A stretch of DNA of 53,453 bases from Bacteroidales bacterium (lineage in GTDB: Bacteria > Bacteroidota > Bacteroidia > Bacteroidales > UBA7960): NCBI GenBank assembly GCA_003559475.1, contig PWLF01000193.1:1-53453 (forward strand), read 5' to 3'. A program made the translations under genes and the position numbers. Below the pieces are notes generated by a model. That model saw nothing but the letters and a program-made list of their open reading frames with translations. It was not told the origin of the DNA and ran no database searches. Of this stretch, positions 16,094 through 44,614 are shown piece after piece. The first letter of the stretch is position 1. The number at the start of each line of letters is the position of its first letter.

Positions 16094-19000
16094 ATGAGAA
16101 GATTTAAAGTATTTTTATCCGTTTTTTTATTACTTTTTGCAATTAATGCACAATCTAATGATGAAGTAATAAAGTTAACTTTTAGTGCAACTTATGATGG
16201 AGAATGGACTCCTTTGGACAGGGTTTTACTGGAAAACTTGTCCCAAGGGGGAGAATATACCATTTTTTATCCCGATACAGTAATGGAATTGCCGACTCAT
16301 ACCGGTATTGGAGATATTCATGGAGAATATAAAAATCTGTATGTGTCGCAAAACTATCCAAACCCTTTCTCAAAAAAAACAAATATTAATGTGGGAGTGG
16401 TTGAGAAAGATGATTTTACAATTAATATTTATGACGTTGCAGGTAGAGAATTAGCAACTTATGAAGTAGAATTAGAACCGAATCTTCATAATTTCACATT
16501 TTATGCTTGTAGTGAGCAGATGTATATATTAACTGTAAAATCTAAAAAACACCTGGAAAAACAATTGATGATACAAACAGGTCCGGGTGGAGATAATTCA
16601 AAGATTGTTTATAACGGAACTGTCGCGAGAACAGAAAGCGGAGAACAATCATCAAAGACTTTCCCTTTCAAACCCGGAGATGTTTTAAGATTTACCGGAT
16701 ATAAAGGAGAGCAAAGTGAAGAGAAAGTTGACACACCAAATAAAGATACTGAATATACTTTTAAATTTAAGAGTTGTGAGCCTAATGCTCCTGTTGCAAA
16801 AGTTGCTTCAGATATTCAGGGTGATTCGTTTAAGGCAAACTGGAATTCTGTAACTGCTGACCCTGCTGTTACCAAGTATCTCCTTGATGTATCAGAGGAT
16901 GATGACTTTAGTACCTATATCTATGAACAAGAAGATGTTGGAAATAATACAGAATATACAGTTTCAGGATTGGATACTGAAACAGAATATTATTACAGAG
17001 TTTATGCTGTAAATAATTGCGGGGAATCAAAATCTTCAAATGTTATTTCTGTTATGACAACAACAGGATGTGTAAAGCCTGATGCTCCTGTTGCTACAGC
17101 CGCAACAAATATTGAAGGTCTTGAGTTTACGGCAAATTGGGATGCAGTAACTTCTGATCCTGCAGTTACTCATTATTTATTAGATGTTTCAGAAGATAGT
17201 GATTTTAGTACTTTTATTCTTGAAAAAGAGAATGTGGGTGATGTTACAGACTATGTCGTAACAGGACTAACTACTGATACTGAATATTTTTACAGAGTAT
17301 TTGCAGTAAATAGTTGTGGACAGTCAGATGCATCAAATGAAATTTCAGTTACGACTATATGTCCGCTACCTGATGCACCTGTTGCTACAGAAGCTACATA
17401 TGTTGATGAAACTGAGTTTACGGCAAATTGGGATGCAGTAATATCTCTTCCCGCTGTTACTCATTACTTATTGGATGTTTCAGAAGATAGTGATTTTAGT
17501 ACTTATGTGCTTGAAAAAGAAGACGTTGGTGATGTTACAGAGTATGAGTTAACAGACTTGGATGAAGAAACTCAGTATTTCTATAGAGTCTTTGCAGTTA
17601 ATGAATGTGGTCAGTCTGATGCATCAAATGTTATTGATGTTGAAACAGCAGTATGTCCTACTCCTGATGAAGCTCCTATTGCTGATCCGGCTACGGATGT
17701 TAATGCTGATCAGTTTAAAGCAAACTGGCAAGAAGTGACTTTTGACCCTGAAATAACAAGCTATCTTATAGATGTTTCAACAGAAAGTGATTTTAGTAGC
17801 TATATTTATGAAAAAGAAAATGTCGGAGATGTTACTGAATATATTGTAACAGGATTAGATGCAGGCACTGAGTATTTTTATAGAGTATATGCTTTTAATA
17901 TGTGTGGAGAGTCTGATCCGTCTAATGAGATATCAGTTACTACAACATGCCCTGTGCCATCTGCTGTAAATGTAAAAGATGCTTCAGATATCGGCGTAGA
18001 TGAGTTTAGAGCAAACTGGCTTGCTGTAACTTCAAGTCCTGAAGTAACTCATTACTTATTAGATGTTTCATTAGAAGAAGATTTTGGTTCTTATGTTTAT
18101 GAAAATGTAAATGTTGGAAATAATACAGAATATCTTGTTGACGGACTAGATGCCGGGACGGAGTATTATTACAGAGTTTTTGCTGTTAACTCTTGTGGAG
18201 TATCAGATCCTTCAAAAGGTGTTTCTGTTGAAACTGTATGTCCTGTTCCGGGACAGCCTGTTGCTACAGATGCTACAGATATAGAAAATGATAGATTTAC
18301 GGCAAACTGGGAAGATGTTACTGCAGACCCGGCTGTAACACACTATTTATTGGATGTTACTACTGATAGTGAATTTGATGTATATAACAGAATTAATGTA
18401 GGAGATAATACAGAATATGTTGTTGAAGGACTAGATATCGGGACTGATTATTTTTACAGGGTTTTTGCTGTAAATAGTTGCGGGACATCTAAACCTTCAA
18501 TAGTTGTTGATGTTACTACTTTATGTGATGTTGTGCCTGATGCTCCTGTTGCACAAGATGCTACGGACATCGGAGCTGTTTCTTTTGTGGCAAACTGGGA
18601 TGCTGTAGTTTCTGTACCGGAAGTAACCGGTTATAATTTAAGAGTTAGGGAAGTCAAAGGTGGTACACCAACTATAGTATTTAACCAAAATGTAGGAAAT
18701 GTTACAGAATATAAAGTTGGGGATTTAAACCCGGATACTGATTATATTTATATTGTTATAGCAATTAACCCATGTGGTACATCTGATATATCAAATGAAA
18801 TAGATGTAACTACTTTGTGTCCTGAGCCGGATGCTCCTACTGCCAATGAAGCCGGAAAAATCGAAGCTACTTCTTTTGTGGCAAACTGGGATGCTGTAGT
18901 TTCTGTACCGGAAGTAACCGATTATAATTTAGTAGTTGTAAAAAATCCTAATGGAGTTCCTACACAAGTATTTAATTCCGATGTAGGGGATGTTACACAA

Positions 19001-20047
19001 TATGAAGTTGAGGATTTAGAACCGGGTACTGAATATGGATATATTGTAAGAGCAATTAACTCATGTGGTAACTCTACTTTTTCAGACCCGGAAATACTTG
19101 TAACTACTTTATGCCCTACTCCTGATGAACCAACAGCTAACCCTGCTTCTAATATCGAGTATAACTCATTTGTGGCAAACTGGGATGCAGTAGTTTCTGA
19201 ACCGGAAGTAACCGATTATAATTTAAGAGTTATAGAAGACCCTAATGGGACTCCTAAACAAATATTTAATTCCAATGTAGGGAATGTTACAGAATATATA
19301 GTTGATGGTTTAGATCCGGATACTGAATATGCATATGTTGTAAGAGCAATTAATCCATGTGGTAACTCTTCTTTTTCAAACCCGGAGATATATGTAACTA
19401 CTTTGGAAGATCCTTGTAATGATCCCTCCAGTGGAGATATAACTTTTACTTATAATGGCGAGGAAGTCACTTATGGTATAGTTAGAAGCGGTAACAGATG
19501 CTGGCTTGATAGAAACCTGGGAGCTTCACAAGTTGCAACAGCAATAGATGATGAAGATGCTTACGGAGATCTTTTCCAGTGGGGTAGAGAAGATGATGGT
19601 CATCAAGAAAGAGATTCTGATGAGACCTCTACTTTAGCTGATTCTGACCAGCCCGGTCATGATGAATTTATTAAAGCTGTTGATCATCCTAATGATTGGC
19701 GTGAAGGTAATAATGATAACAGATGGAATGCTGATCCTATGGTTAATAACCCTTGCCCTCTTAGCTGGGCTGTTCCTAGTGTAGAAGATTGGAATTATGA
19801 AGTGGACAGGTGGAGCAGTAATGATAGTGAAGGTGCTTTTAATTCACCTCTTAAACTAACAGCCGGAGGTTATCGTGGGGTTTTAGGTTCTGTTTCAGGT
19901 GAAGGAACATCAGGGGCTTACTGGAGTAGCTCAGTTTTGTCAACAGCATCTAATCGTTTATATTTTGATGATGATAGCTCTAATACTAATTCACAACATC
20001 GTGTACGTGGTTCTTCAGTTCGTTGTATTATGGATAAAAAGAAATAA
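16094..20047 (+). CDS. Secreted protein with internal T9SS CTD-like domain, nine fibronectin type III repeats and C-terminal FISUMP-like domain
   Basis: Signal peptide; SQNYPNPF...IYDVAGRE near the N-terminus; nine F.ANW...YRV.A.N.CG.S units; C-terminal WLDRNLGA, GDLFQWGR, PCP..W.VP, YWSSS and SVRCI. Confidence 0.88.
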   Translation: MRRFKVFLSVFLLLFAINAQSNDEVIKLTFSATYDGEWTPLDRVLLENLSQGGEYTIFYPDTVMELPTHTGIGDIHGEYKNLYVSQNYPNPFSKKTNINVGVVEKDDFTINIYDVAGRELATYEVELEPNLHNFTFYACSEQMYILTVKSKKHLEKQLMIQTGPGGDNSKIVYNGTVARTESGEQSSKTFPFKPGDVLRFTGYKGEQSEEKVDTPNKDTEYTFKFKSCEPNAPVAKVASDIQGDSFKANWNSVTADPAVTKYLLDVSEDDDFSTYIYEQEDVGNNTEYTVSGLDTETEYYYRVYAVNNCGESKSSNVISVMTTTGCVKPDAPVATAATNIEGLEFTANWDAVTSDPAVTHYLLDVSEDSDFSTFILEKENVGDVTDYVVTGLTTDTEYFYRVFAVNSCGQSDASNEISVTTICPLPDAPVATEATYVDETEFTANWDAVISLPAVTHYLLDVSEDSDFSTYVLEKEDVGDVTEYELTDLDEETQYFYRVFAVNECGQSDASNVIDVETAVCPTPDEAPIADPATDVNADQFKANWQEVTFDPEITSYLIDVSTESDFSSYIYEKENVGDVTEYIVTGLDAGTEYFYRVYAFNMCGESDPSNEISVTTTCPVPSAVNVKDASDIGVDEFRANWLAVTSSPEVTHYLLDVSLEEDFGSYVYENVNVGNNTEYLVDGLDAGTEYYYRVFAVNSCGVSDPSKGVSVETVCPVPGQPVATDATDIENDRFTANWEDVTADPAVTHYLLDVTTDSEFDVYNRINVGDNTEYVVEGLDIGTDYFYRVFAVNSCGTSKPSIVVDVTTLCDVVPDAPVAQDATDIGAVSFVANWDAVVSVPEVTGYNLRVREVKGGTPTIVFNQNVGNVTEYKVGDLNPDTDYIYIVIAINPCGTSDISNEIDVTTLCPEPDAPTANEAGKIEATSFVANWDAVVSVPEVTDYNLVVVKNPNGVPTQVFNSDVGDVTQYEVEDLEPGTEYGYIVRAINSCGNSTFSDPEILVTTLCPTPDEPTANPASNIEYNSFVANWDAVVSEPEVTDYNLRVIEDPNGTPKQIFNSNVGNVTEYIVDGLDPDTEYAYVVRAINPCGNSSFSNPEIYVTTLEDPCNDPSSGDITFTYNGEEVTYGIVRSGNRCWLDRNLGASQVATAIDDEDAYGDLFQWGREDDGHQERDSDETSTLADSDQPGHDEFIKAVDHPNDWREGNNDNRWNADPMVNNPCPLSWAVPSVEDWNYEVDRWSSNDSEGAFNSPLKLTAGGYRGVLGSVSGEGTSGAYWSSSVLSTASNRLYFDDDSSNTNSQHRVRGSSVRCIMDKKK
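16775..19410 (+). repeat. Nine ~96-98-aa FN3 coding repeats
   Basis: Periodic GCAAAYTGG (ANW) motif; the last three units share long near-identical DNA stretches. Confidence 0.92.
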
Positions 20048-32679: not shown

Positions 32680-33378
32680 TTATACTGAAAAATAATCCTC
32701 TATCTCTTTCAAATTTGCTTGAGTATTTCTAATATCTTTTATAATTAAACCCTTTTCCAGTAAAACGATACGTGAACATATAGATGCTATATGATGAAGA
32801 TTATGGCTTGAAATTATTATTGTTGTCTTTCTCTCTTCGTTTATTTTTTTTAAAATGCTATTTATTCTTATTTGTGATGTTGGATCAAGAAAGTTAAAGG
32901 GTTCATCTAAAATTAATAACTCAGGCTCTGTTATTAAAGCGGCAATTATCCCGGTTTTTTGCTTATTTCCGGTTGATAACTGACGAATATATTTTTTCTG
33001 ATTTAAAATTTCATTATTCATTAAAGGCTCGAGGGTTTTTAATCTTTCATCTATCTCTGACCTGCTTATTCCATAAACTTCACCGGTAAAATAAAAATAT
33101 TCTTCAGGCGTCATAAAATCTATTAAAAAACCTTCATCAAGATAGCTGCCGGTATGTGATTTCAAGTTTTGAGTGTTTTTTACGTTTTCATTATTTATTA
33201 AAACTTTTCCGTTTGTTGGCTCTAATAAGTCTAAAACTATTCTCAAGAGAGTTGTTTTTCCTGCTCCATTGTTTCCGACAATACCAACAAGTTCCCCTTT
33301 TGATATTTGAAGATTGGTAATATCTAAAGCTTTATTATTGCCATAATATTTTTGAAGTTGTTCAGCTGATATATTCAT
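32680..33378 (-). CDS. ABC transporter ATP-binding protein
   Basis: GNNGAGKTT, LSTGNKQK, LDEPFNFLDP. Confidence 0.92.
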   Translation of the reverse strand: MNISAEQLQKYYGNNKALDITNLQISKGELVGIVGNNGAGKTTLLRIVLDLLEPTNGKVLINNENVKNTQNLKSHTGSYLDEGFLIDFMTPEEYFYFTGEVYGISRSEIDERLKTLEPLMNNEILNQKKYIRQLSTGNKQKTGIIAALITEPELLILDEPFNFLDPTSQIRINSILKKINEERKTTIIISSHNLHHIASICSRIVLLEKGLIIKDIRNTQANLKEIEDYFSV

Positions 33379-33395
33379 ATTTTTTAAATTAAAAA

Positions 33396-34883
33396 TTAAT
33401 TTTCTCTGAATTTTTGCAATTTAATATATTTCTTCCCAAGAAAATAATTAACCGCTTTTTTTATCCAATAAGGATGTGTTATCCAAAATATAATTCCTGT
33501 AAATATTAAAGTATAATATACTCCATAATCCGTATTAATGATATGTCCGATTACTAAAAATGGTATTATTGAGCACATAATAACAAATATCATTAAAAAT
33601 TGTATGCCACTGATTCCTTCAAAATTCATAAACGCCTTTTGATTTGGGTTTATGCGTGTAGAGTGGCTTATGCCTGCAAATAACATTATGCAAAAAGCAG
33701 CTCCTATAGTGTATGTCATAATCGAGAAATAAACTAAAACGTAAAAAGGGTTTATGTAATATAAAAACGGTAATAAGATCAGAAACTGTATTAAAGCAAT
33801 GCAGCTGTAAAAATAGTATTTGGCTTTAAAAAAATCTTTAAAGTTGATATTTTTTGAAGCTATATAGTCAAAATAGCGACTTTCCCAGGAGAGAAAAAAC
33901 TGAAGATGAAAAAAACCGTAAGAACCGGCAAACAACATTAAAAATACAAGCATGTTTGATATTGTTTCAGCAGGATACCACCAAAAAAAGAATAATAATA
34001 CAGGAAGCATTATCGGAAACTGGTAAAAATTATTTTTTGACCTTTTGTTGCGTGTGATTAGCTTCCATTCTAAATCCCAAAATTTACCATAAACAGGTAT
34101 TTTGCTGAAAAAACCACCCATAAAAGTTGATCCTGCAAGTAATGTGCTCTTAGATTCGCTGTCTTCAAATAAAAAATAAAACCCTCTTTTAAGATTATAT
34201 TTTGATAAAACTTGCAAACAAATAATTGAAATAATAAAAATTGCGAAAGTCAGTTTTGAGCCGCTCATAAAGCTATTCCCCAGAAGCAGGGAGATGTTAA
34301 ATAATTGCTCGTAATGAAAATAGCCGATAATTGCTAAAACTAAAGCGATGATCATTAAAGCTGTTCTGATTATGTTATTTTTTATTGAAATGGTTTTTAG
34401 CACTATTATCAATGAATGATTTAGTCCTGATAAAACTATTATGCCGGCAATTGAGTATAAAAATGCTTCACCGGAAACGTTAAAAGCTATTGTGTAATAG
34501 AAAAAAGGGATAAAAAATACAAGCAGATAAATATTAAAAATATTAAACCATGCTCTAATGATGAAAAAGTTAGCTATACTGTTTTTAGAAATCGGATAAT
34601 GAAAATAAGGTAAAATATTCTGAGCGGGGATTTTTTGCATGAACCACCTTGTGATAAGGTCACCAAACATGATAAAAATCAATACTTTAAAAACTAATTC
34701 GTGGATTTTTTCTCCGGGAAAAAAGTCATGTAATAAATGCGGAAGAAGCATACCCGCCAACATTATATAAATAAGGAAAAAAAGTATGGCAAACCCGATA
34801 ATTATATTTACCGTAAGGTTCTTTTCAAAAAAATGAGCCCTGCGATATGCCAATAATGTATGTTTGAAAAATTTGAAAAACAT
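33396..34883 (-). CDS. ABC-2-type permease (DUF5687-like)
   Basis: About 12 TM segments; LEWKLITRNKR and WESRYFD; upstream of the cognate ATPase. Confidence 0.8.
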   Translation of the reverse strand: MFFKFFKHTLLAYRRAHFFEKNLTVNIIIGFAILFFLIYIMLAGMLLPHLLHDFFPGEKIHELVFKVLIFIMFGDLITRWFMQKIPAQNILPYFHYPISKNSIANFFIIRAWFNIFNIYLLVFFIPFFYYTIAFNVSGEAFLYSIAGIIVLSGLNHSLIIVLKTISIKNNIIRTALMIIALVLAIIGYFHYEQLFNISLLLGNSFMSGSKLTFAIFIISIICLQVLSKYNLKRGFYFLFEDSESKSTLLAGSTFMGGFFSKIPVYGKFWDLEWKLITRNKRSKNNFYQFPIMLPVLLFFFWWYPAETISNMLVFLMLFAGSYGFFHLQFFLSWESRYFDYIASKNINFKDFFKAKYYFYSCIALIQFLILLPFLYYINPFYVLVYFSIMTYTIGAAFCIMLFAGISHSTRINPNQKAFMNFEGISGIQFLMIFVIMCSIIPFLVIGHIINTDYGVYYTLIFTGIIFWITHPYWIKKAVNYFLGKKYIKLQKFREN

Positions 34884-35248: not shown

Positions 35249-38200
35249 ATGCGATTATTTAAAAGTAAGCAAAAAAAATTTATTTTGGTTTTTTTTATAA
35301 AAGCTTTACTACTACTTTATAATACAGTTATATCCTCGCCTCCCCCACCTAATGTTGTAGAACAGACTATTCAGGTTTTTTGTGGAGAAAATGCTGAGTT
35401 TGAAATAGACAACCAGGACCCTGATTATATTTATTTTTGGTTTTCTGATTCCGAAGGAGAAGAACAGGTAGGATTAGGTGAAATTTTTGAAACTTCGGTT
35501 TTAACTTCAAATACAAGCTATTGGGTTGGAGCTGCTGAAGGAGAGATAATATCTGAAGAATTTACATTTACCAATTGTGATGCTACCGGTCGTTTTGGGC
35601 CTGATCAAAGTGCTGTAGATTCAGAATACAATGGGACTAATTTGGAAGGAGATGTTACGGTTATTGGAGATGGAATACAGGAATGGATTGTTCCAAAAAC
35701 AGCTACATATACTATTACTACTTATGGAGCAGGTGCAGGATATATAAACGAACAAAAAGGAGCAAAAATATCCGGCGAATTTGAATTAGAAGAGGGGGAT
35801 ACTTTAAGAATTTTAGTTGGACAAGTTGGCTTAGGAGGTGATACTGATGATGACGGTCGCTTTTGTGGTTCTGGGATGACAGCTGTTGCTAAATATCAAG
35901 AGAACGATGATGACATTCCTTTAATAGTAGCAGGAGGAGCCGGTGGAGTATCAGACGGAAGTATATCATCCCCTGTACAATCTTTTGGTATAGCAACAGA
36001 AACAGCAAATAGTGGAACTTCAGGAGGAAATCCTGATAATTCGGAAGGAACAGATGGTAATGCAGGTAGAAGCGGAAGTACAGGTACATGGGCACATCCG
36101 GGTTCAGGATTTTATGAGTCGGAAACAGTTGGTACTGATGGGGATAGATCTCAGTCATTTATTGATGGTGGTGTAGGTGCTTCCGGAGATAATAATGCCG
36201 AAGGAGGTTTTGGAGGAGGAGGAGTTGGAAGACATAATCAAAGAATAGGAGGAGGTGGCGGTTATTCCGGCGGTGGCTCGGGTGGAAACTCAAATAATGA
36301 TGTTGGAGGAGGTGGGGGCTCCTATAATTCAGGAAAAAATCAAACTAATAAATCGGGATACCATCAAGGAAATGGTTTAGTTGTTATTTCTTTAGAAGTT
36401 CCGGAAGTTGGAGAATTAAGTGATTTAACTCAAGTAGATGTGGAAATTGAAGAATTAAGTATTCCGGATGTTTCTGAATTAAACCCTGATATTTACTGTG
36501 GGACGTCAATAACTTTATCCGCCTCAGGAAGTTCTTCCAACTATGTATGGTATAACGATGAAGATGATATAGTTGGCACAGGAGAAAATTTTACTACTCC
36601 AAGTCTAACCGAAAATACTACTTATTATGTCGAAGCAGTTGATACTGAACCGGAAAATGTGGTTTTAGAGTTTACCAATTGTAAAGCAACAGGCAGAACA
36701 GGTCCTTCTCAAGCAGACTGTGATTTTGAATATTTGGGAACAAATCTTGAAGGAAAGGTTAATATAACCGGTTATGGAATTCAACAGTGGGTTGTTCCTT
36801 ATACTGCAACATATACTATTGAAGCTTATGGGGCTCAGGGAGGGTCCGGAATAAGAGGAGGTATTGGTGGAAAAGGAGCAAAAATGTCCGGCGAGTTTGA
36901 ACTTGAAAAAGGGCAAAAATTAGATATTTTAGTTGGTCAACAAGGTCGAGGGGGGTATTCAAATCAAGTAGGTGGTGGCGGTGGTACTTTTGTAGTTATG
37001 AGTAATGCTATTTATGAGGAAGATATTTTAATAATTGCCGGTGGTGGTGGGGGTTATGGTGTAGGAACAACTACTGTTAATCAGGATAAAGCGTATGGTT
37101 CGGTTGATGTCAATGCAAAAGATGGGGTTGGCGGAGAGTCCTGGGGTGCGGGAGGTGTTGATGGAAATGGTGGAGATGCTGCAGACTCAAGAGGTTCCGG
37201 TGGAGGAGGGTTTTTTAGTGATGGAGAAGATGGCTCCGGAAACGGTGGGAGGGGTGTTTCTTATATAAAAGGAGGACTAGGAGGGCATGGTAATACTGTT
37301 GATGGTGGATTTGGTGGTGGTGGAGCTACAGATGAAAATACCGGATGGGGTGCAGCTAGTGGTGGTGGTGGTTATACCGGTGGTGGTGGTGGATACTCTG
37401 ATAGTGAAGATGATGAAGCTGCCGGAGGAGGAGGTGGTTCATTTAACTCAGGAATAAATCAAAATAATGAAGAAGGTGTTAAAACCGGTCATGGATTAGT
37501 AGTTATATCTTACTCTGTTGAACCTCAATGTGCTTCAGATAGAGCCCCAATAAATATAACAGTAGAAGAAATAGATACACCGGAAATAGTTGACCCAAAT
37601 CCCATTATATCTTGTGGAGGTAAAGCCACATTATCTGCATCAGGTAGTACAGGAGAATATGTATGGTATAACGATGAAGATGAAATTGTCGGTATAGGAG
37701 AAAACTTTACTACTTCAATCCTGACAGAAAATACAACTTATTATGTTGCGGCTGTTAATAGCGAACCTGCGAATAGTATTTGGCGATTTACAAATTGTAG
37801 AAAAGAAGGAAGATTAGGTCCTACTCAAGAAGATGCAGATAATGAATATGAAGGAACTAACCTAGAGGGAGAAGTCACAATAATTGGTGATGGCATTCAA
37901 CAATGGACTGTTCCCAAAACAGCTACTTACACAATTGAAGCTTATGGTGCACAAGGAGGTGCAGGGACGAGAGGTGGTATTGGAGGTAAAGGAGCAAAAA
38001 TGTCAGGTGATTTTGAACTTCAAGAAGGCGAAGTTATTGAAATCCTTGTTGGTCAACAAGGTGACGGTGGATATTCTCAAGAAATAGCAGGAGGTGGTGG
38101 TTCTTTTGTAGTAATGGGAAATGCCAGTAATAAGTCAGATATTTTGATTATAGCAGGTGGTGGAGGTGGTTATGGTGTTGGAACAACTACTATTCATCAG

Positions 38201-41200
38201 GATGTAGCACATGCGACAATAAATGATAATGCAAAAAACGGAATTGGAGGTACCTCTTTGGGTATAGGAGGAGTTGATGGAGCCGGCGGCGGAGATGCTG
38301 AATCTAGAGGTTCAGGAGGTGGTGGATTTATAAGTGATGGTGCTGACGGTTCAGGAAATGGTGGTGGCGGTAAATCATTTTTAAATGGCGGACAAGGAGG
38401 AGTGGGTAACACTGTTGATGGTGGATTTGGTGGTGGTGGAGCTACAGATGAAAATACCGGATGGGGTGCTGCAAGTGGTGGCGGTGGTTATTCAGGAGGT
38501 GGTGGAGGATACTCTGATAGTGATGATAATGAAGCAGCCGGAGGTGGAGGTAGCTCATATAACTCTGGTGCTAATCAAAATAATCAAGCCGGTGTTAGAG
38601 AAGGGCATGGATTGGTTATTATATCCTCAATAGTTGAAAAAAAATGTGCTTCTGATAAAGTCCCCATAAATATTACAGTAGAAGAACTAATCTCTCCGGA
38701 TGTTACAGAATCAGATCCCATTATTTCTTGTGGTTCATCCATAACACTAAACGCTTCAGGAAGCACAAATAATTATGTATGGTTTAATGAGAATGATGAA
38801 ATAATAGGTTATGGTAATAGCTTTACTACTCCCAGACTTAAAAATGACACAATATATAAGGTTGCTGCTATTGATTTTCAAACTGAAGTAATAGAATATG
38901 AATTTACAAATTGTGGAGTAGAAGGTAGATTTGGTCCTTTTCAATCAAATGTTAATTCTGAGTATTCAGGAACAAACCTTGAAGGAAATGTGACCGTGGT
39001 TGGATACGGAATTCAGAAGTGGGAAGTTCCTTATTCAGCAACATACAATATTCAAGCTTATGGTGCACAAGGAGGTGTTGGCCCTAGAAGTGGAATAGGA
39101 GGTAAAGGAGCAAAAATATCAGGTTATTTTGATCTTGAAAAAGGTGATGTATTAGAAATCTTAGTTGGTCAAAAAGGAGGTGGTAGTGATATTGATACAT
39201 TAGAAATTGGCGGTGGAGGAGGATCTTTTGTAGTAATGGAAAATGCCAGCTCAGAAGCCGATATTTTAATTATAGCCGGAGGAGGTGGTGGTTATGGTGT
39301 AGGAACATCTACTAATCAACAAAATATAGCTCATGCTACAACAGAAAACAATGCAAAAGATGGTTTTGGCGGTAATTCATGGGGTACGGGAGGAGTTGAT
39401 GGAAGTGGTGGAAATGCTGCAAATTCAAGAGGTTCAGGAGGTGGAGGATTTTTTACTGATGGTGAAGATGGCTCGGGAAATGGAGGTAGAGGAAGATCTT
39501 ATCTAAATGGTGGTGTTGGCGGAAGAGGATATAGTCTAGATGGCGGCTTTGGTGGAGGAGGAGCTACAGATGAAGCTACATCATCCTTTGGTGCTGCCGG
39601 CGGTGGTGGCGGATACTCCGGTGGAGGTGGAGGATATTCTTCTAGTAGTTCTAACGAAGCTGCAGGAGGAGGAGGAGGTTCTTTTAACTCAGGTTTTAAT
39701 CAAAATAATGAAGAAGCATACATTGAAGATAGACATGGACGAGTTATCATATCTTATGAGAGAGAATTTTTATGCTTATCAGAAAAGGTGTCGATTAATA
39801 TCACTATTGATGATATGGAAAGCCCAAATATAAACGAAACAAACCCTGCTATCTCATGTGGAGGAATTACTACTTTAACTGCCTCGGGAAGTACAGGATA
39901 TTATCTGTGGTATGATGAAGTAAACGAAATAGTTGGGACAGAAGACAGTTTTAATACTCCTGTTCTTACAGAAAATACAGATTATCAGCTTGAAGCTATT
40001 GATATTGAAAGTGAAGAGATAGAGTATGTATTCACAAATTGCGGAGTTGAAGGAAGAACAGGTCCTTCTCAATTAGACTGTGATACTGAATATTCAGGGA
40101 CAAATATTGAATCAGAAGTTACAATAAATAGTGATGGCATTCAGGAATGGGAAATACCCGAAACAGGAGTATATACTTTTACTGCATACGGTGCAAGAGG
40201 TGGAGGAAAAGATATAAATGTGGGAAGGCATGGTTATGGAGCAATTATACAAGCTGATTTTGAATTAAATAAAGGAGATGAAATACTGATTTTAGTTGGA
40301 CAAAAAGGTTCTGATTATTCAGATGAAAATGGTAATGCAGGTGGTGGAGGAACTTTTATAGTAAAAGTTGACCCACAAGGAGATTATTTTATGGATGATA
40401 ATAGTTACTTGGGTTTAAAAGTTACACCATTGTTAGTTGCCGGAGGAGGTGGCGGAGCATTTAATGATAATCCTATTGCTGATAACGATGGTCAAACAGA
40501 TAGTTATAGTGAATATCTCGGAGAGTGGACTGATCAAGGTGGATTTCATTGGGGAGCTACAGGTTCCGGGGAAGGTGCCGGAGGTGGATTTTCCGGAACC
40601 GGCGAAGAAGATGGCTCTGAACCCACAGGAGGAGGGAGTTTCTTAAATGGATATAAAGGAGACAGAAATTACGGAATTGGTGGATATTATCTGGAAGAGT
40701 CTTCAGATTATGGAGGTTTTGGCGGTGGTGGCGGTTATGGTATATTTAATTACGGATCAGGAGGAGGAGGATTCAGAGGTGGTGATTTTTGTCCATACAA
40801 TAGTAACACATGTAAGAGTGGTGGAGGAAGTTATATTCATAAAAGTGCAATATCAGCCGCTACTTCAGACGGTAATTTTAATACTACTAATTCCGACGGC
40901 TTTGATGTCTATGATGGTCCTGTTGATAACTTGAATGAATATAATGAAGATGATCATGGAATGGTTATAGTAACTTATGCTATAGAACCTATATGTTTCT
41001 CTGATAGAGATTTCGTAACGGTAGAAGTAGAATTTGACTACTATCAAACACTATCTTCCGGAGATTGGGATAATGAAAGTACATGGGAGGAGTGTTGTAT
41101 GACAACATGCAACCCGGCTGAGTCATCTCCCTTATCTTTATTTGACAGAGATATCTCTATAAGAGACGGGCATGTGATTGATATTGATGGCGATTGGACA

Positions 41201-42538
41201 AACAATGCAGATATCATTAAAGAACAGGATAGCGAAATAAATATTACCGGCAACTGGATTAATCAAGGAACTGTTGATACTGAATTAGGAGGAGTGTTTA
41301 GATTTAGTGGTTCTTCCCATCAAACTATTGACCCCGGCGACAGTGATTTTAATGATATTATATTTGAGAACACTACTGGGTTATGTGGAGATTTAGAAAT
41401 AACCTCTCCAATGGTAATAAACGGCAATGCAGATTTTGATGACGGAGTTGTCTATTTCTCTGATACTGGATCATTATTATTTACAGAAGATGCTACATCA
41501 AACGAAGGCTCTGAAGATAGCTTTGTTGACGGTGAAGTTGAAAAAGAAGGAACAGACGCTTTTGTTTTTCCTATAGGAGAAAGTTGCATTTATGCACCTT
41601 TAGGTATTTCTGAAGCATCAGGTGGAGACCAGGGCGAGTCATTTACTGCAAGGTATTATCATATAGATCCTGATCTAGCCGGACTTGATGTGACAAGCAA
41701 AGAAGCGTCAATTAATAATGTTTCCAGAATGGAATACTGGATTCTTGATAGATCTGACGGAGGAACAAATGAGGTTCAGGTAACCTTAAGCTGGGAGGAT
41801 TCTAGAAGCGGAGGCATTGGAAATCTTAATGACCTAATAGTTGCCCGCTGGGATGATACTCAATGGAATGATAAAGGACAGTCATCAATAACCGGTGATA
41901 TTATGTCAGGCACAATTACCTCAAACTTTATAAGTGATTTTAGCCCGTTTACTCTTAGCTCCGAATCATGGGATAATCCTCTTCCAATCGAACTTCTGAG
42001 CTTTGAAGCAGAATGCGATAAAGATGGGAATGCTTTAATAACCTGGGAAACAGCTACTGAGATAAATAATGACTATTTCATATTGGAAAAATCCAAAGAC
42101 GGAAAAGATTTTACAGAGATAGCTATGATTGAAGGTCAGGGTTATAGCAACAGAATTGTGGAGTATTCATATATTGATGAACACTTGTTTTTCGGAGATA
42201 ATTATTACAGATTAAAACAAGTAGATTTTGACGGTACAACAACAGAATATAACATAATTCACATAAATTGTGATAAAAAATCAGATGAAGCAAAATCAGT
42301 AGTTTACCCAAATCCTTTCAGGTCGGAAATAATTATATATCTTGAGAATATTGAAGATAATCATGTATATTTTGAGATATATAGCGAAACAGGTAGTTTA
42401 ATAACTCGCAAGAGATACGGTATTGAAAGAGATTCTGATAGCTATGTGTTTGAACTTGATGATCTAGAACCCTCAGCATACTTGCTTAGAATAATCTCAG
42501 ACAGGCATTTGTTTAATCATAAGATAATAAAGAATTAA
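35249..42538 (+). CDS. Giant T9SS cargo adhesin-like protein with five ALK/LTK-like glycine-rich domains in Ig-like modules
   Basis: Signal peptide; five FTNC...GR.GP...IQ.W.VP...YGA.GG...ILVGQ.G...GFGGG units; Ig-like WY...G..FTTP.LT..TTYYV.A; PLPIELLSF; CTD VYPNPF...KIIKN. Confidence 0.9.
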   Translation: MRLFKSKQKKFILVFFIKALLLLYNTVISSPPPPNVVEQTIQVFCGENAEFEIDNQDPDYIYFWFSDSEGEEQVGLGEIFETSVLTSNTSYWVGAAEGEIISEEFTFTNCDATGRFGPDQSAVDSEYNGTNLEGDVTVIGDGIQEWIVPKTATYTITTYGAGAGYINEQKGAKISGEFELEEGDTLRILVGQVGLGGDTDDDGRFCGSGMTAVAKYQENDDDIPLIVAGGAGGVSDGSISSPVQSFGIATETANSGTSGGNPDNSEGTDGNAGRSGSTGTWAHPGSGFYESETVGTDGDRSQSFIDGGVGASGDNNAEGGFGGGGVGRHNQRIGGGGGYSGGGSGGNSNNDVGGGGGSYNSGKNQTNKSGYHQGNGLVVISLEVPEVGELSDLTQVDVEIEELSIPDVSELNPDIYCGTSITLSASGSSSNYVWYNDEDDIVGTGENFTTPSLTENTTYYVEAVDTEPENVVLEFTNCKATGRTGPSQADCDFEYLGTNLEGKVNITGYGIQQWVVPYTATYTIEAYGAQGGSGIRGGIGGKGAKMSGEFELEKGQKLDILVGQQGRGGYSNQVGGGGGTFVVMSNAIYEEDILIIAGGGGGYGVGTTTVNQDKAYGSVDVNAKDGVGGESWGAGGVDGNGGDAADSRGSGGGGFFSDGEDGSGNGGRGVSYIKGGLGGHGNTVDGGFGGGGATDENTGWGAASGGGGYTGGGGGYSDSEDDEAAGGGGGSFNSGINQNNEEGVKTGHGLVVISYSVEPQCASDRAPINITVEEIDTPEIVDPNPIISCGGKATLSASGSTGEYVWYNDEDEIVGIGENFTTSILTENTTYYVAAVNSEPANSIWRFTNCRKEGRLGPTQEDADNEYEGTNLEGEVTIIGDGIQQWTVPKTATYTIEAYGAQGGAGTRGGIGGKGAKMSGDFELQEGEVIEILVGQQGDGGYSQEIAGGGGSFVVMGNASNKSDILIIAGGGGGYGVGTTTIHQDVAHATINDNAKNGIGGTSLGIGGVDGAGGGDAESRGSGGGGFISDGADGSGNGGGGKSFLNGGQGGVGNTVDGGFGGGGATDENTGWGAASGGGGYSGGGGGYSDSDDNEAAGGGGSSYNSGANQNNQAGVREGHGLVIISSIVEKKCASDKVPINITVEELISPDVTESDPIISCGSSITLNASGSTNNYVWFNENDEIIGYGNSFTTPRLKNDTIYKVAAIDFQTEVIEYEFTNCGVEGRFGPFQSNVNSEYSGTNLEGNVTVVGYGIQKWEVPYSATYNIQAYGAQGGVGPRSGIGGKGAKISGYFDLEKGDVLEILVGQKGGGSDIDTLEIGGGGGSFVVMENASSEADILIIAGGGGGYGVGTSTNQQNIAHATTENNAKDGFGGNSWGTGGVDGSGGNAANSRGSGGGGFFTDGEDGSGNGGRGRSYLNGGVGGRGYSLDGGFGGGGATDEATSSFGAAGGGGGYSGGGGGYSSSSSNEAAGGGGGSFNSGFNQNNEEAYIEDRHGRVIISYEREFLCLSEKVSINITIDDMESPNINETNPAISCGGITTLTASGSTGYYLWYDEVNEIVGTEDSFNTPVLTENTDYQLEAIDIESEEIEYVFTNCGVEGRTGPSQLDCDTEYSGTNIESEVTINSDGIQEWEIPETGVYTFTAYGARGGGKDINVGRHGYGAIIQADFELNKGDEILILVGQKGSDYSDENGNAGGGGTFIVKVDPQGDYFMDDNSYLGLKVTPLLVAGGGGGAFNDNPIADNDGQTDSYSEYLGEWTDQGGFHWGATGSGEGAGGGFSGTGEEDGSEPTGGGSFLNGYKGDRNYGIGGYYLEESSDYGGFGGGGGYGIFNYGSGGGGFRGGDFCPYNSNTCKSGGGSYIHKSAISAATSDGNFNTTNSDGFDVYDGPVDNLNEYNEDDHGMVIVTYAIEPICFSDRDFVTVEVEFDYYQTLSSGDWDNESTWEECCMTTCNPAESSPLSLFDRDISIRDGHVIDIDGDWTNNADIIKEQDSEINITGNWINQGTVDTELGGVFRFSGSSHQTIDPGDSDFNDIIFENTTGLCGDLEITSPMVINGNADFDDGVVYFSDTGSLLFTEDATSNEGSEDSFVDGEVEKEGTDAFVFPIGESCIYAPLGISEASGGDQGESFTARYYHIDPDLAGLDVTSKEASINNVSRMEYWILDRSDGGTNEVQVTLSWEDSRSGGIGNLNDLIVARWDDTQWNDKGQSSITGDIMSGTITSNFISDFSPFTLSSESWDNPLPIELLSFEAECDKDGNALITWETATEINNDYFILEKSKDGKDFTEIAMIEGQGYSNRIVEYSYIDEHLFFGDNYYRLKQVDFDGTTTEYNIIHINCDKKSDEAKSVVYPNPFRSEIIIYLENIEDNHVYFEIYSETGSLITRKRYGIERDSDSYVFELDDLEPSAYLLRIISDRHLFNHKIIKN
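35567..40980 (+). repeat. Five ~370-aa coding repeats
   Basis: FTNC motifs at 35567, 36671, 37787, 38903 and 40031 (spacings 1104, 1116, 1116 and 1128 nt). Confidence 0.95.
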
Positions 42539-42790: not shown

Positions 42791-43804
42791 GTGAAGAATA
42801 AAATTATTAGATGGGGCATTTTCTTATTATCGCTTGTTTTTTTGGCGATAATAGCATTTTTGGTTGCAATCTCGACCGGAGAGTTTAAAATTTCAATTTT
42901 TGATATTCCTCGTATTCTTATTGAAAAAGAGGGAACGGAATATACGATTATCAATCATCTGAGATTACCCAGAATACTTTTAGGAATAGCCGTTGGAGGT
43001 GGTTTAAGTTTGTCGGGAGCTATACTTCAGGGGATATATAGAAATCCTTTGGTAGAGCCATATACTTTAGGAATTTCCGGTGGTGCCGCTTTTGGTGTCG
43101 CTATGGCTATAGTTTTTGCTTTACCGATGACAATCGGTTACTTTATATTGCCTCTTGCAGGGTTTACCGGTGCTTTAATTACAATTTTTCTAGTCTATTT
43201 TCTTGGAATACGTCAGGGAAATATTAATATCAATAATATGCTTCTGATAGGAGTGATGATCAGCTTTGTCTCTTCAGCAGCTATGATGCTTTTAATGGCT
43301 ATTACAACATCTGATAATCTTCACAGTATTGTTTTTTGGATGATGGGCTCTCTTGATGAGCCAAATATGAGCATAATCCGGATAACTATGATAGTATCTT
43401 TATCCGCCCTTATTTTATCTTTGTTTTTTTCTAACTCTTTGAATGCTTTGCGTTTAGGAGAAACAAATGCGAAGCATTTGGGAATAAATACCGGAGTTGC
43501 TATTCGGATATTATTTGTATTAGCATCGCTTCTGGCAGGTATTTGTGTCGCATCTGCCGGTGTTATCGGGTTTGTCGGACTCGTGATTCCTCATTTGATA
43601 AGGTTGATTGCAGGGTCCGATTTCAGAGTCTTGCTCCCCGGTTCTTTTTTGGGTGGAGCAACATTTTTAATTATATCCGACACTTTAGCACGTACAATAA
43701 TTTCACCCAACGAATTACCAATAGGTGTTATAACAGGAATAGTCGGAGGGATAATGTTTATAATTATTTTGAGTAGATCAAAATCAAACTTTAAAATGAG
43801 TTAA
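42791..43804 (+). CDS. FecCD/BtuC family ABC permease (iron chelate or cobalamin)
   Basis: LRLPR, RNPLVEPYTLGIS.GA, GVIGFVGLVIPH, ELPIGVIT; GTG start. Confidence 0.95.
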   Translation: MKNKIIRWGIFLLSLVFLAIIAFLVAISTGEFKISIFDIPRILIEKEGTEYTIINHLRLPRILLGIAVGGGLSLSGAILQGIYRNPLVEPYTLGISGGAAFGVAMAIVFALPMTIGYFILPLAGFTGALITIFLVYFLGIRQGNININNMLLIGVMISFVSSAAMMLLMAITTSDNLHSIVFWMMGSLDEPNMSIIRITMIVSLSALILSLFFSNSLNALRLGETNAKHLGINTGVAIRILFVLASLLAGICVASAGVIGFVGLVIPHLIRLIAGSDFRVLLPGSFLGGATFLIISDTLARTIISPNELPIGVITGIVGGIMFIIILSRSKSNFKMS

Positions 43805-43807
43805 AAT

Positions 43808-44614
43808 ATGCCATCTTTTTTTTCAATAAAAGATTTTTCTTGTGGTTATTCAAACCGGTATGTCTTGGAAAATATAAACTTTGATATAAGCAAAGGTGTG
43901 TTGTCAGGCATTATTGGTCCTAACGGCTCCGGGAAAACAACCCTTTTCAGAGGGATAACAGGGCAGTTGTCAACAAAAAAAGGGGAAGTTTATCTCAATG
44001 GCAATGATTTGCAAAGAATGACTTATAAAGAAAAAGCAAGGCATATTGCCGTTGTTTCTCAACATACAAACGCAACCGATATTACCGTCGAAGATTACGT
44101 TTTGATGGGAAGACTGCCTCATAGAAAAAAGATGAGATTTTTTGAAACCGCTGAAGACTATGAGATTGCGTATAAGTTTATGGAACTAACAAATGTTATC
44201 CACCTTAAAGATAAACTTATGTCGAAAATAAGTGGCGGAGAACAACAGTTAGCCAACATCGCAAGAGCCCTCACTCAACAACCTGATTTGTTGCTTCTTG
44301 ATGAACCAACATCTCACCTCGATATTACTCATCAGGTACAAATATTAAACCTGATTCAAAAATTAAATCATGAGATGGGGCTTTCCGTATTAATGATTAT
44401 TCACGACCTTAACCTCGCAGGAGAGTACTGTGATTACTTGATAATGCTTAATGACGGCAAAATACACAAAAAAGGTCTTCCCGAAAAGGTGCTAAATTAT
44501 AAAGATATTGAAGAAGTTTATAATACGGTAGTGGTTGTTAAACCAAACCCAATATCAGATAAACCCTCTGTGTTTCTGGTGTCAGAAAAAATATTAAATA
44601 AAATGGAAGATTAA
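43808..44614 (+). CDS. FecE/BtuD family ABC ATP-binding protein
   Basis: GPNGSGKTT, SGGEQQ, LDEPTSHLD, HDLNLA. Confidence 0.95.
   Translation: MPSFFSIKDFSCGYSNRYVLENINFDISKGVLSGIIGPNGSGKTTLFRGITGQLSTKKGEVYLNGNDLQRMTYKEKARHIAVVSQHTNATDITVEDYVLMGRLPHRKKMRFFETAEDYEIAYKFMELTNVIHLKDKLMSKISGGEQQLANIARALTQQPDLLLLDEPTSHLDITHQVQILNLIQKLNHEMGLSVLMIIHDLNLAGEYCDYLIMLNDGKIHKKGLPEKVLNYKDIEEVYNTVVVVKPNPISDKPSVFLVSEKILNKMED

Follow-up and report, generated by a model that had tools for sequence, protein, structure and literature searches.

A predicted T9SS cargo protein of a Bacteroidales bacterium carries five tandem units homologous to the ligand-binding domain of ALK/LTK

The window analysed here, a stretch of 53,453 nucleotides, stems from a low-GC Bacteroidota genome (Bacteroidales bacterium, contig PWLF01000193.1) and contains a region of five tandem glycine-rich units, which is covered completely by a single intact open reading frame of 2429 amino acids at positions 35249-42538 on the + strand. 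The features of this gene are as follows.

35249-42538, + strand: whole gene (P0001), comprising a signal segment, five modules of Ig_7 plus ALK-like unit, a beta-sandwich module and a T9SS sorting domain
35249-35338, + strand: N-terminal signal-peptide-like segment, residues 1 to about 30, with a basic start, a hydrophobic core and no Cys (by eye)
35339-35536, + strand: Ig_7 domain 1, residues 31-96 (PF19081, 37.2 bits against a cut-off of 27.3 on the N-terminal piece)
35561-36400, + strand: unit 1, TNF-like plus glycine-rich, residues 105-384 (PF12810, 25.7 bits; own profile, E 4.0e-112)
36401-36664, + strand: Ig_7 domain 2, residues 385-472 (best Pfam Ig_7 stretch at residues 414-466)
36665-37516, + strand: unit 2, the modelled unit, residues 473-756 (PDB ALK, E 1.4e-15; AF2 pLDDT 94.6; Z 34-35 to ALK/LTK)
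37517-37780, + strand: Ig_7 domain 3, residues 757-844 (Pfam Ig_7; linker identity)
37781-38632, + strand: unit 3, residues 845-1128 (73% identity to unit 2)
38633-38896, + strand: Ig_7 domain 4, residues 1129-1216 (Pfam Ig_7; linker identity)
38897-39760, + strand: unit 4, residues 1217-1504 (68-69% identity to units 2 and 3)
39761-40024, + strand: Ig_7 domain 5, residues 1505-1592 (Pfam Ig_7; linker identity)
40025-40981, + strand: unit 5, residues 1593-1911, the most divergent, with three insertions (PF12810, 39.5 bits, profile positions 6-241 of 243)
40982-42301, + strand: C-terminal all-beta module, residues 1912-2351, without a Pfam family (AF2 pLDDT 84)
42302-42535, + strand: T9SS type A C-terminal sorting domain, residues 2352-2429 (PF18962, TIGR04183)

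Each unit opens with the motif FTNC (residues 107, 475, 847, 1219 and 1595, corresponding to nucleotides 35567, 36671, 37787, 38903 and 40031), and units 2-5 are closed by HGxV(I/V), ending at nucleotides 37510, 38626, 39754 and 40975, while unit 1 ends at about 36385. The limits of 35567-40980 given for the array in an earlier note, made from the letters alone, are exact by these starts and ends, and all of the ordered motifs listed there for each unit are present. A total of 75 columns is invariant across the five units, including FTNC, GR.GP.Q, GIQ.W, Y..YGA, ILVGQ.G and the glycine runs, with glycine making up 23-30% of the units. Every unit is preceded by an Ig_7 domain, of which a Pfam scan of the whole 2429-residue protein finds five stretches, and four of these linkers are mutually 43-56% identical. 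Besides Ig_7, only ALK_LTK_GRD, Por_Secre_tail and a sub-threshold DUF1410 are found by Pfam on the whole protein. The C-terminal all-beta module has 1029 relatives of 284-907 amino acids, named only 'T9SS type A sorting domain-containing protein', and its AlphaFold2 model gives only generic tandem FnIII-like matches in fold comparison.

Homology of the units to the ligand-binding domain of the receptors ALK and LTK is real. The Pfam family PF12810 (ALK_LTK_GRD) scores 83.6 bits on the whole protein against a gathering cut-off of 24.5 (E 2.9e-23); of the single units, two pass this cut-off (25.7 and 39.5) and three fall just under it (23.1, 20.8 and 15.6). In a phmmer search of unit 2 against PDB sequences, eight distinct ALK/LTK sequences are retrieved with E 1.4e-15 to 1.6e-13, and the next match follows at E 0.36. 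The best ALK stretch covers residues 3-133 of unit 2, with 45 of 96 aligned positions identical, 33 of which are not glycine (hand count), and the match to the human ALK/LTK chains runs mainly through the non-glycine N-terminal part. The ALK motifs named in the earlier note do occur in the ALK chains aligned with unit 2.

This likeness extends to the predicted fold. A template-free AlphaFold2 model of unit 2 (pLDDT 94.6, pTM 0.94) was compared with known structures, the matched ALK entries of the PDB having been released in 2021. Foldseek, proposed beforehand as a check, returned ALK/LTK ectodomain structures (E 1.6e-16, and lower-ranked ALK/LTK matches with TM 0.64-0.76). Superposition of the model on human LTK/ALK with VIA gives Z 34-35 and an rmsd of 1.8-2.1 Å over 243-249 of 284 residues, reaches across ALK 683-984 and shows 38-42% identity over 236-249 residues. 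Of the 48,161 representative chains compared, no more than six attain a Z of at least 5, namely three of ALK, one of nematode ALK, the Pam3 fibre (Z 8.2) and the Bxb1 tail tip (Z 7.9). Unit 2 lies at Z 34 and 41% identity to human ALK, compared to Z 22 and 27-28% for nematode ALK. DSSP assigns neither helix nor strand to the glycine runs of the model. Based on this comparison, the units are predicted to share the ALK/LTK fold, a TNF-like beta-sandwich with a polyglycine-II helix bundle, and the model matches the whole TNF-like plus glycine-rich domain, as the earlier note had supposed. A resemblance confined to low-complexity glycine, with a predicted fold lacking a PGII bundle, had been named there as speaking against this reading; the likeness found extends well beyond glycine.

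The TG domain of human ALK/LTK (PDB 7NX0, 7NX1, 7NWZ, 7N00, 7LRZ, 7LS0) has the same motif order and, by the model, the same whole-domain fold. In contrast, the receptors possess an EGF-like domain, a transmembrane helix and a tyrosine kinase, all three of which are missing from the bacterial protein (Pfam on the whole protein finds no kinase or EGF domain), and they carry a single copy of the domain instead of five tandem units with Ig_7 spacers and T9SS export. Moreover, the second Cys, which has an ALK Cys as its counterpart in the alignment, is confined to units 2 and 5. Judged from its sequence, the bacterial protein thus has a domain in common with ALK/LTK receptors but is not itself one of them. 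PDB titles call the matched ALK region the ligand-binding region, bound to ALKAL/AUG, and ALKAL-type ligands are described as a vertebrate innovation (bioRxiv 10.1101/795468).

Export of the protein is suggested by both of its ends. Its N-terminus, basic and then hydrophobic, looks like a signal peptide by eye. At the C-terminus, TIGR04183 scores 23.2 against a cut-off of 23, and PF18962 (cut-off 27) reaches 28.0 bits with the C-terminal piece as query and 31.2 when the genome is scanned, but 25.2 on the whole protein, which is under the cut-off. The same genome encodes SprA (SprA_N, 589.2 bits, contig C272) and contains 84 sorting-domain matches. By its sorting domain and the presence of SprA, the protein is assigned as a putative T9SS type A cargo, and it is probably an exported, surface-held multi-module binding protein. 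Of the surface display proposed in the earlier note, export is hence supported by the T9SS domain, the signal-like segment and SprA, while the choice of covalent anchoring over release is our inference.

The five units differ from each other mainly where the domain family as a whole is variable. Column conservation was derived from 400 non-redundant units of other proteins, giving 113 conserved and 75 variable columns. Between unit 1, units 2-4 and unit 5, identity is 66-77% in the conserved columns versus 11-17% in the variable ones, so that the loops have diverged between units on a conserved scaffold. Units 2-4 form a clade in the tree (support 0.96), and the nearest neighbours of unit 1 are units of other proteins. 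Units 2-4, with dS of 0.8-1.3, are under purifying selection (dN/dS 0.05-0.07 in the scaffold and 0.38-0.41 in the variable columns). As dN/dS stays below 1 in the variable columns as well, diversifying selection of the kind usual in phage receptor-binding loops is not apparent in units 2-4.

Taken together, the protein can on balance be regarded as a large acidic T9SS cargo, probably surface-held, that acts as a multivalent binder or adhesin through modules of ALK/LTK type. It would leave the cytoplasm by Sec export, pass through the T9SS and probably be held on the cell surface, where five modules strung on Ig-like spacers would be presented. In each module, as in the model, a TNF-like beta-sandwich would be joined to a polyglycine-II helix bundle, with a rigid conserved scaffold and connector loops between the glycine helices that vary by unit. 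These loops are the presumed binding surface and are assumed to make one binding face, so the modules may serve as binding sites of about three specificities (unit 1, units 2-4 and unit 5). The binding role is proposed by analogy, because in ALK/LTK this fold is what binds ALKAL/Augmentor, and it also occurs at the tips with which phage fibres recognise their host. ALKAL-type ligands arose in vertebrates, and hence the bacterial ligand must differ from them. No result of the analysis suggests a ligand, and no conserved gene neighbourhood hinting at a pathway was found.

Instead of binding, the protein might form a passive surface coat or spacer, i.e. a highly acidic, protease- and salt-resistant layer with no specific ligand. 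The computed pI of 4.0-4.4 for every segment except the sorting domain (5.0) would suit such a layer, as would the origin of the public runs holding the gene, which are labelled salt lake and soda lake metagenomes, the lack of visible positive selection in the variable loops and the string of generic beta-sandwiches in the C-terminal part. However, all relatives with a solved structure are modules that bind a ligand or a receptor, and close relatives should commonly possess a coat protein, whereas the gene was not found in any of 24 other genomes of the same family. Three distinct loop sets kept under purifying selection also fit specific functions better, which leaves the coat improbable, though it is the strongest competitor of the adhesin.

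A little less probable again is a released cargo, in which the same modules would form a soluble multivalent binder catching a particle or polymer from the medium. Both anchored and released cargo bear type A sorting domains, and the C-terminal module also stands alone as small T9SS proteins of about 455-465 aa. The sequence itself gives nothing to tell the two fates apart, but long Ig-spaced arrays are typical of cell-attached adhesins.

Apart from ALK, only two solved folds exceed Z 5, and both belong to phages: gp24 of cyanophage Pam3 (7YFW/7YPX; Z 7.7-8.2) and the tail-tip protein of mycobacteriophage Bxb1 (9D93; Z 7.9-8.1). They share the two-part architecture over 130-138 residues with 22-28% identity to unit 2, and are far more distant from it than ALK is. 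For Pam3 gp24, host-receptor recognition by its TNF-like domain along with the glycine-rich one, using distal loops that vary upon a glycine stem that is conserved, has been described and the likeness to nematode ALK remarked upon (PMC9608196); the resemblance of a phage fibre tip to ALK is therefore already published. Additionally, matches at E <= 1e-3 extend to 69 viral protein models, with virion structural proteins and a putative short tail fibre among them, and PF21722 (Gly_rich_2) gives weak scores of 15.5 bits on unit 2 and 9.9 on unit 5 against a cut-off of 24.3. This points to a distant relationship with the phage glycine-rich tips rather than to membership of that group. The phage proteins are trimeric fibre ends in need of a chaperone, in contrast to a single chain with five units and cellular export signals. 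A phage-derived module in cellular service, either as receptor-binding tips acting on other cells or as phage decoys, would accord with these viral matches and with a Peptidase_S74 gene (a phage-fibre chaperone domain) 19 kb upstream. It is nevertheless unlikely, as there are no flanking phage genes (the neighbours are recA, ABC transporters and FecCD), the non-glycine codon composition matches that of neighbouring genes, tblastn gives no match among 50,697 phage records, and the protein bears cellular export signals, not fibre attachment domains.

Binding of an inorganic surface such as ice or carbonate/mineral crystals by flat polyglycine-II faces, like in snow-flea antifreeze proteins, is more doubtful still. 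The helix type is shared (PMC13243192, bioRxiv 10.1101/2023.11.25.568672) and the habitat labels are mineral-rich, yet in ALK, to which the fold corresponds, the bundle lies against a TNF-like sandwich; conservation is found in the scaffold, and the units differ from one another in the loops. The snow-flea antifreeze protein and the phage S16 gp38 tip, described as glycine-rich polyproline-II-type helix bundles too, have different topologies without a TNF-like sandwich and are absent from the fold matches listed.

Contigs from public runs, one of which may be the window's own source, span each unit junction with 0-1 differing letters (X3 36404-36836; X1 37324-38440 and 38440-41207; X2 37539-39920), and modules 2-4 have a DNA identity of just 71.5-75.5%, the longest exact word in common being 59 nt; because of both, the array is unlikely to be an assembly artefact. 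That the whole feature is a chance likeness of low-complexity sequence or a misassembled repeat, for which the glycine content and the three units below the Pfam gathering score might be cited, is refuted to near certainty by the ALK match being strongest in the non-glycine part, a fold match spanning the whole domain, modules too diverged to collapse in assembly and the bridging contigs.

The ligand-binding domain of ALK/LTK is of medical importance, and its fold attracted attention on being solved in 2021. A bacterial unit with the same fold, predicted at high confidence, and about 40% identity bears on where this domain came from. Occurrences of the ALK-like domain are spread widely over bacteria, archaea, viruses and eukaryotes other than vertebrates. 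A protein of the choanoflagellate Monosiga brevicollis has five stretches matching unit 2, with two near-full units in the tree, and proteins of lancelet and coral carry the domain in non-kinase contexts. Because of these occurrences, and since unit 2 is nearer to human ALK than nematode ALK is, it may tentatively be proposed that the TNF-like plus polyglycine-II module is an old mobile microbial recognition module, and that the animal ALK/LTK domain descends from that pool. Members of this pool would be in use in the tips of phage fibres, in giant viruses and in surface proteins of bacteria and archaea, and the capture would have taken place on the line of descent towards animals. With its three loop sets, the bacterial chain would then be a multi-specific adhesin and correspond, on the cellular side, to the receptor-binding tip of a phage. 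With a spread as wide and patchy as this, over bacteria, archaea, viruses, a choanoflagellate, coral and lancelet, phylogeny could address where the ALK domain originated. Being small, cysteine-poor and numerous, the bacterial units may also be tractable models for polyglycine-II folding and binding. Any binding result for a cellular microbial member would be new, as to our knowledge no function is known for any of them and no paper on bacterial homologues was found in the literature searched, which lacks most subscription journals.

With regard to rarity, the earlier reading, supported in every testable part, has to be qualified, as the domain is common in microbes: a search with unit 2 matched 5211 protein clusters, and by sequence the present protein is one of thousands, with no special claim over the others. 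A near-identical protein was not found in the collections searched, where the best identity is 53-57% (P0003, 56% over the unit). Relatives have one to seven units per protein; among 221 fetched, 161 have at least two and 15 at least five. PF18962 is carried by 43 of 120 relatives listed (hand count). The protein shares PF12810, Ig_7 and Por_Secre_tail with multi-unit T9SS cargo from Flavobacteriia/Bacteroidota metagenome genomes, for instance P0006, P0062, P0094 and P0003, and some relatives are named "glycine-rich protein" in their source records. Some other relatives have fn3, PKD, cadherin or LamG as partners instead.

The large gene is a single intact open reading frame (35249-42538, + strand) encoding 2429 aa. 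Its parts and immediate neighbours, in window coordinates, are the following.

35567 (aa 107), + strand: FTNC start of unit 1
36671 (aa 475), + strand: FTNC start of unit 2
37787 (aa 847), + strand: FTNC start of unit 3
38903 (aa 1219), + strand: FTNC start of unit 4
40031 (aa 1595), + strand: FTNC start of unit 5, which closes at 40975
40982-42301, + strand: all-beta module of 440 aa without a Pfam family, after unit 5 and before the sorting domain
Last 78 aa, + strand: T9SS type A sorting domain (TIGR04183 23.2, cut-off 23; PF18962 28.0 and 31.2, cut-off 27)
Upstream, opposite strand: recA, VanY peptidase and ABC ATPase with DUF5687
Downstream: FecCD/ABC transporter

The earlier note had placed five tandem ALK/LTK-like domains of a secreted protein at 35567-40980. 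These coordinates are exact, all motifs named there are covered by the 75 invariant columns of the five-unit alignment, and overall the observation proved real and accurately described and its interpretation sound. Units 2-4 are 68-73% identical to one another, and every other pair of units shares 43-53%; without glycine columns, the values are 60-64% and 39-46%, respectively. Since an Ig-like domain of 88 aa (Pfam Ig_7, five stretches, E 1.8e-39) stands before each unit, the array repeats with a period of 368-376 aa. The N-terminus carries a basic and then a hydrophobic segment, which by eye is typical of a Sec signal.

The likeness of the units to ALK is real and is supported by three independent lines, namely profile, sequence and fold. 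On the whole protein, Pfam model PF12810 (ALK_LTK_GRD) scores 83.6 bits at a cut-off of 24.5; taken singly, units 1 and 5 exceed it (25.7 and 39.5), with units 2-4 slightly below (23.1, 20.8 and 15.6). Searched with phmmer against every chain sequence in the PDB, unit 2 retrieved eight distinct ALK/LTK sequences (E 1.4e-15 to 1.6e-13) and no other match below E 0.36. The top matching stretch is the glycine-poor N-terminal part of the unit (query 3-133), where, by hand count, 45 of 96 aligned positions are identical, 33 of the 45 being non-glycine; the ALK motifs given in the earlier note are present in the alignment to ALK chains. For the fold, unit 2 was modelled with AlphaFold2 from an alignment of this unit with the other four and 23 short relatives, using no templates (mean pLDDT 94.6, pTM 0.94). 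ALK and LTK chains occupy the top Foldseek ranks for this model (E 1.6e-16 to 7e-15, TM 0.64-0.76), and VIA-align superposes it on LTK with Z 35.2 (rmsd 1.8 Å, 243 residues, 38% identity) and on ALK residues 683-984 with Z 34.7 (2.1 Å, 249 residues, 41%). In a fold search independent of Foldseek, only six of 48,161 representative chains reached Z 5: human ALK three times (Z 34), nematode ALK (Z 22.1), the fibre of cyanophage Pam3 (Z 8.2) and a Bxb1 tail-tip protein (Z 7.9), followed by members of the TNF and C1q families at Z 3-4.6. As the ALK entries were released in 2021, later than the structures on which the AlphaFold2 weights were trained, this agreement represents prediction rather than memory. 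Glycine runs are left unassigned by DSSP and, together with the whole-domain superposition, point to a polyglycine-II bundle in the model. Similarity confined to glycine in a fold lacking such a bundle, named beforehand as the finding that would speak against the claim, is thus contradicted by the identity at non-glycine positions and the superposition of the modelled domain. Profile and fold both place the units in the ALK_LTK_GRD domain family. The large protein itself falls outside the ALK receptor family, as it lacks the EGF-like domain, membrane helix and kinase.

Across sequence space the ALK-like domain is very common; counted per genome, it is rare. Unit 2 matches 5211 clusters (50% identity) at E <= 1e-3 among 1.84 billion representatives, 2896 of them at <= 1e-10 and 330 at <= 1e-30, and 1039 of 8000 scored candidates among large proteins are matches as well. 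PF12810, which is weak on these units, gave no match in 40 related genomes, and genome counts were therefore based on a profile of the five units. This profile matched none of four same-genus genomes, none of 20 genomes from other genera of the family, one of 16 from other families of the order and five of 400 other genomes of the phylum (each at least 90% complete), counts that mean "not found" rather than absence because repeats and large genes often drop out of metagenome bins. The own genome (3.18 Mb, 298 contigs, 93.8% complete) encodes a second, partial protein with one ALK-like unit on contig C185 (801-1634, profile E 2.5e-67), preceded by a weak Ig_7 match; its open frame of 1510 aa, truncated by the contig start, runs to a T9SS sorting domain at C185:4284-4517. 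A relative in a complete genome is T9SS cargo with PKD, Ig_7 and sorting domains and adjoins ribosomal protein genes. Near-complete units occur in 221 of 227 fetched proteins, of which 60, 81, 50, 15, 13, 1 and 1 carry one to seven units, respectively, so that five units per protein lie at the high end and are not unique. Named bacterial and archaeal members include "glycine-rich protein" entries of Flavobacteriia and Bacteroidota, a cadherin-like protein of Verrucomicrobiota and two archaeal proteins; named eukaryotic members include lancelet TRIM-like proteins, a coral fibrillin-like protein and a Monosiga brevicollis protein. A scan of genome records keyed on the glycine-run pattern, which provides names only and no frequencies (relatives in 9 of 600 stretches listed), yielded Cryomorphaceae, Myxococcota, Pontibacter and an alphaproteobacterium among the matches listed. 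Several ALK-like units are also found in non-kinase eukaryotic proteins (P0041, P0042, P0050, P0055, P0076 and P0170), including lancelet RING/B-box (TRIM-like) proteins, an EGF-rich coral 'Fibrillin-2' and proteins from two protists, one of them Monosiga brevicollis; some are auto-named 'receptor protein-tyrosine kinase' in the source with no kinase domain listed. The same name is attached to many BFVD viral proteins with the unit fold, where it looks like an artefact of the ALK domain family and not like phage kinases.

Both Pfam and source names such as "glycine-rich protein" already imply that the domain occurs in bacteria; the large protein joins a known, functionally unstudied group. A likeness between phage proteins and ALK has been published (PMC9608196). 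The full-text literature searched, with most subscription journals outside its scope, yielded no study of cellular homologues in bacteria or archaea, and PF12810 is named only in a fungal paper, according to which the domain has no known function (PMC4859500). The word stem "bacteri" is absent from a review on ALK receptors (PMC10605310).

The history of the array was approached with a tree of 510 units that contains neither ALK nor LTK and whose tips are mostly without a taxon label. Units 2-4 group together as a clade (support 0.96), and the closest neighbours of units 1 and 5 belong to other proteins; the array therefore combines an old, differentiated set with an internal triplication. At the DNA level, units 2-4 are 71.5-75.5% identical with dS of 0.8-1.3, and the triplication itself is old. 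All three copies are under purifying selection: their dN/dS, 0.21-0.26 overall, is 0.05-0.07 for the scaffold and 0.38-0.41 for the variable columns; no sign of positive selection on the loops was seen in this comparison. Eukaryotic units are scattered over the tree at three or more separate positions, from which no direction of transfer is drawn owing to the unnamed tips and the absence of ALK.

Alignment of 400 non-redundant units from other proteins defines 113 strongly conserved columns, which correspond to the beta-strands of the sandwich and to the glycine runs (in unit 2, glycine occupies 61 of the 113), and 75 highly variable columns clustered in the connectors between glycine runs. 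Comparing units 1, 2-4 and 5, identity is 66-77% in scaffold and 11-17% in variable columns; among units 2-4 the respective values are 90-92% and 43-58%. The same pattern has been described for the Pam3 fibre with its conserved glycine stem and variable, host-recognising tip (PMC9608196). In ALK/LTK, this domain is the ligand-binding region according to the PDB titles. On these two likenesses, we lean towards reading the large protein as a multivalent binder exported by the T9SS, probably held at the surface and provided with about three loop-defined specificities. As a rival, it might form a passive acidic coat; it is strongly acidic throughout, with a pI of 4.0-4.4 in all parts except the sorting domain (5.0).

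Export by the type IX system is well supported. The earlier description as a secreted protein agrees with the C-terminal sorting domain, the SprA encoded in the own genome (589 bits) and the 84 sorting-domain matches found there; on the whole protein, PF18962 scores 25.2 at a cut-off of 27. Type A sorting domains are linked to covalent anchoring at the surface, and such anchoring may be expected here by analogy; a released binder is another rival. A phage-related role is a further one, to which 69 viral protein models with the unit fold (E <= 1e-3) are relevant, among them virion proteins of cyanophages and one putative short tail fibre; tblastn of unit 2 against 50,697 phage records gave no match at E 1e-5, to which the low-complexity filter of BLAST may contribute. 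Ice or mineral binding is the last rival. Neither the snow-flea antifreeze protein nor S16 gp38, both other polyglycine-II folds, is among the fold matches listed for unit 2.

At least 1029 relatives of the 440-aa module were found, 284-907 aa in length; the sources give them no name beyond "T9SS type A sorting domain-containing protein", and many occur as stand-alone proteins (~455-465 aa). Its model is all-beta (pLDDT 84). The fold search returned only generic tandem FnIII-like matches (TM <= 0.18) and PorU at E 1.5e-5, and the ESM Atlas only unnamed T9SS-tail clusters; no specific fold or function was assigned. The second protein on contig C185 shows weak similarity to the module (E 7e-5).

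The neighbours of the large gene do not suggest an operon or pathway. Immediately upstream lies the divergent gene pair for the ABC ATPase and DUF5687 (249 bits; 32680-34883, - strand), with no evident link. The FecCD gene is kept in two same-genus genomes (78-80% identity), the genes upstream of it being unrelated, and no match to the large protein was found within 12 kb. Synteny with these two loci breaks directly upstream of the transporter genes (42791-44614), which are 68-80% identical, and the preceding 12 kb differs. The GC content of the large gene is raised (0.39-0.42) owing to glycine codons; its non-glycine codons (GC 0.318, GC3 0.197) lie within the range of the neighbours, so that composition was rejected as a sign of recent transfer.

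The gene recurs almost letter for letter in contigs from three DNA runs; the two samples behind these are labelled as metagenomes of a salt lake (2012) and a soda lake (2019). The contigs of the public runs, one of which may be the source of the window, span every unit junction. Joints with short sides of 21-37 letters at 90% likeness were rejected as array variants and taken as repeats or other organisms. None of the public runs listed as holding the gene is an RNA run; the single RNA-run contig lies over the sorting domain, differs at 20 of 243 letters and probably stems from another organism. A promoter scan gave 7 sites at 5.6 expected and is uninformative; the promoters of Bacteroidota differ from the consensus used.

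Two further proteins encoded in the window are of note. A chromosomal protein of 1121 aa (12680-16045) contains near its C-terminus a Peptidase_S74 domain (aa 971-1056); in phages, this domain serves endosialidases and tail-fibre proteins as an intramolecular chaperone. A protein of 1317 aa (16094-20047) combines nine fn3 stretches with a Por_Secre_tail-like domain in an unusual place: it lies near the N-terminus (aa 88-159), directly behind a signal-like start, and not at the C-terminal end.
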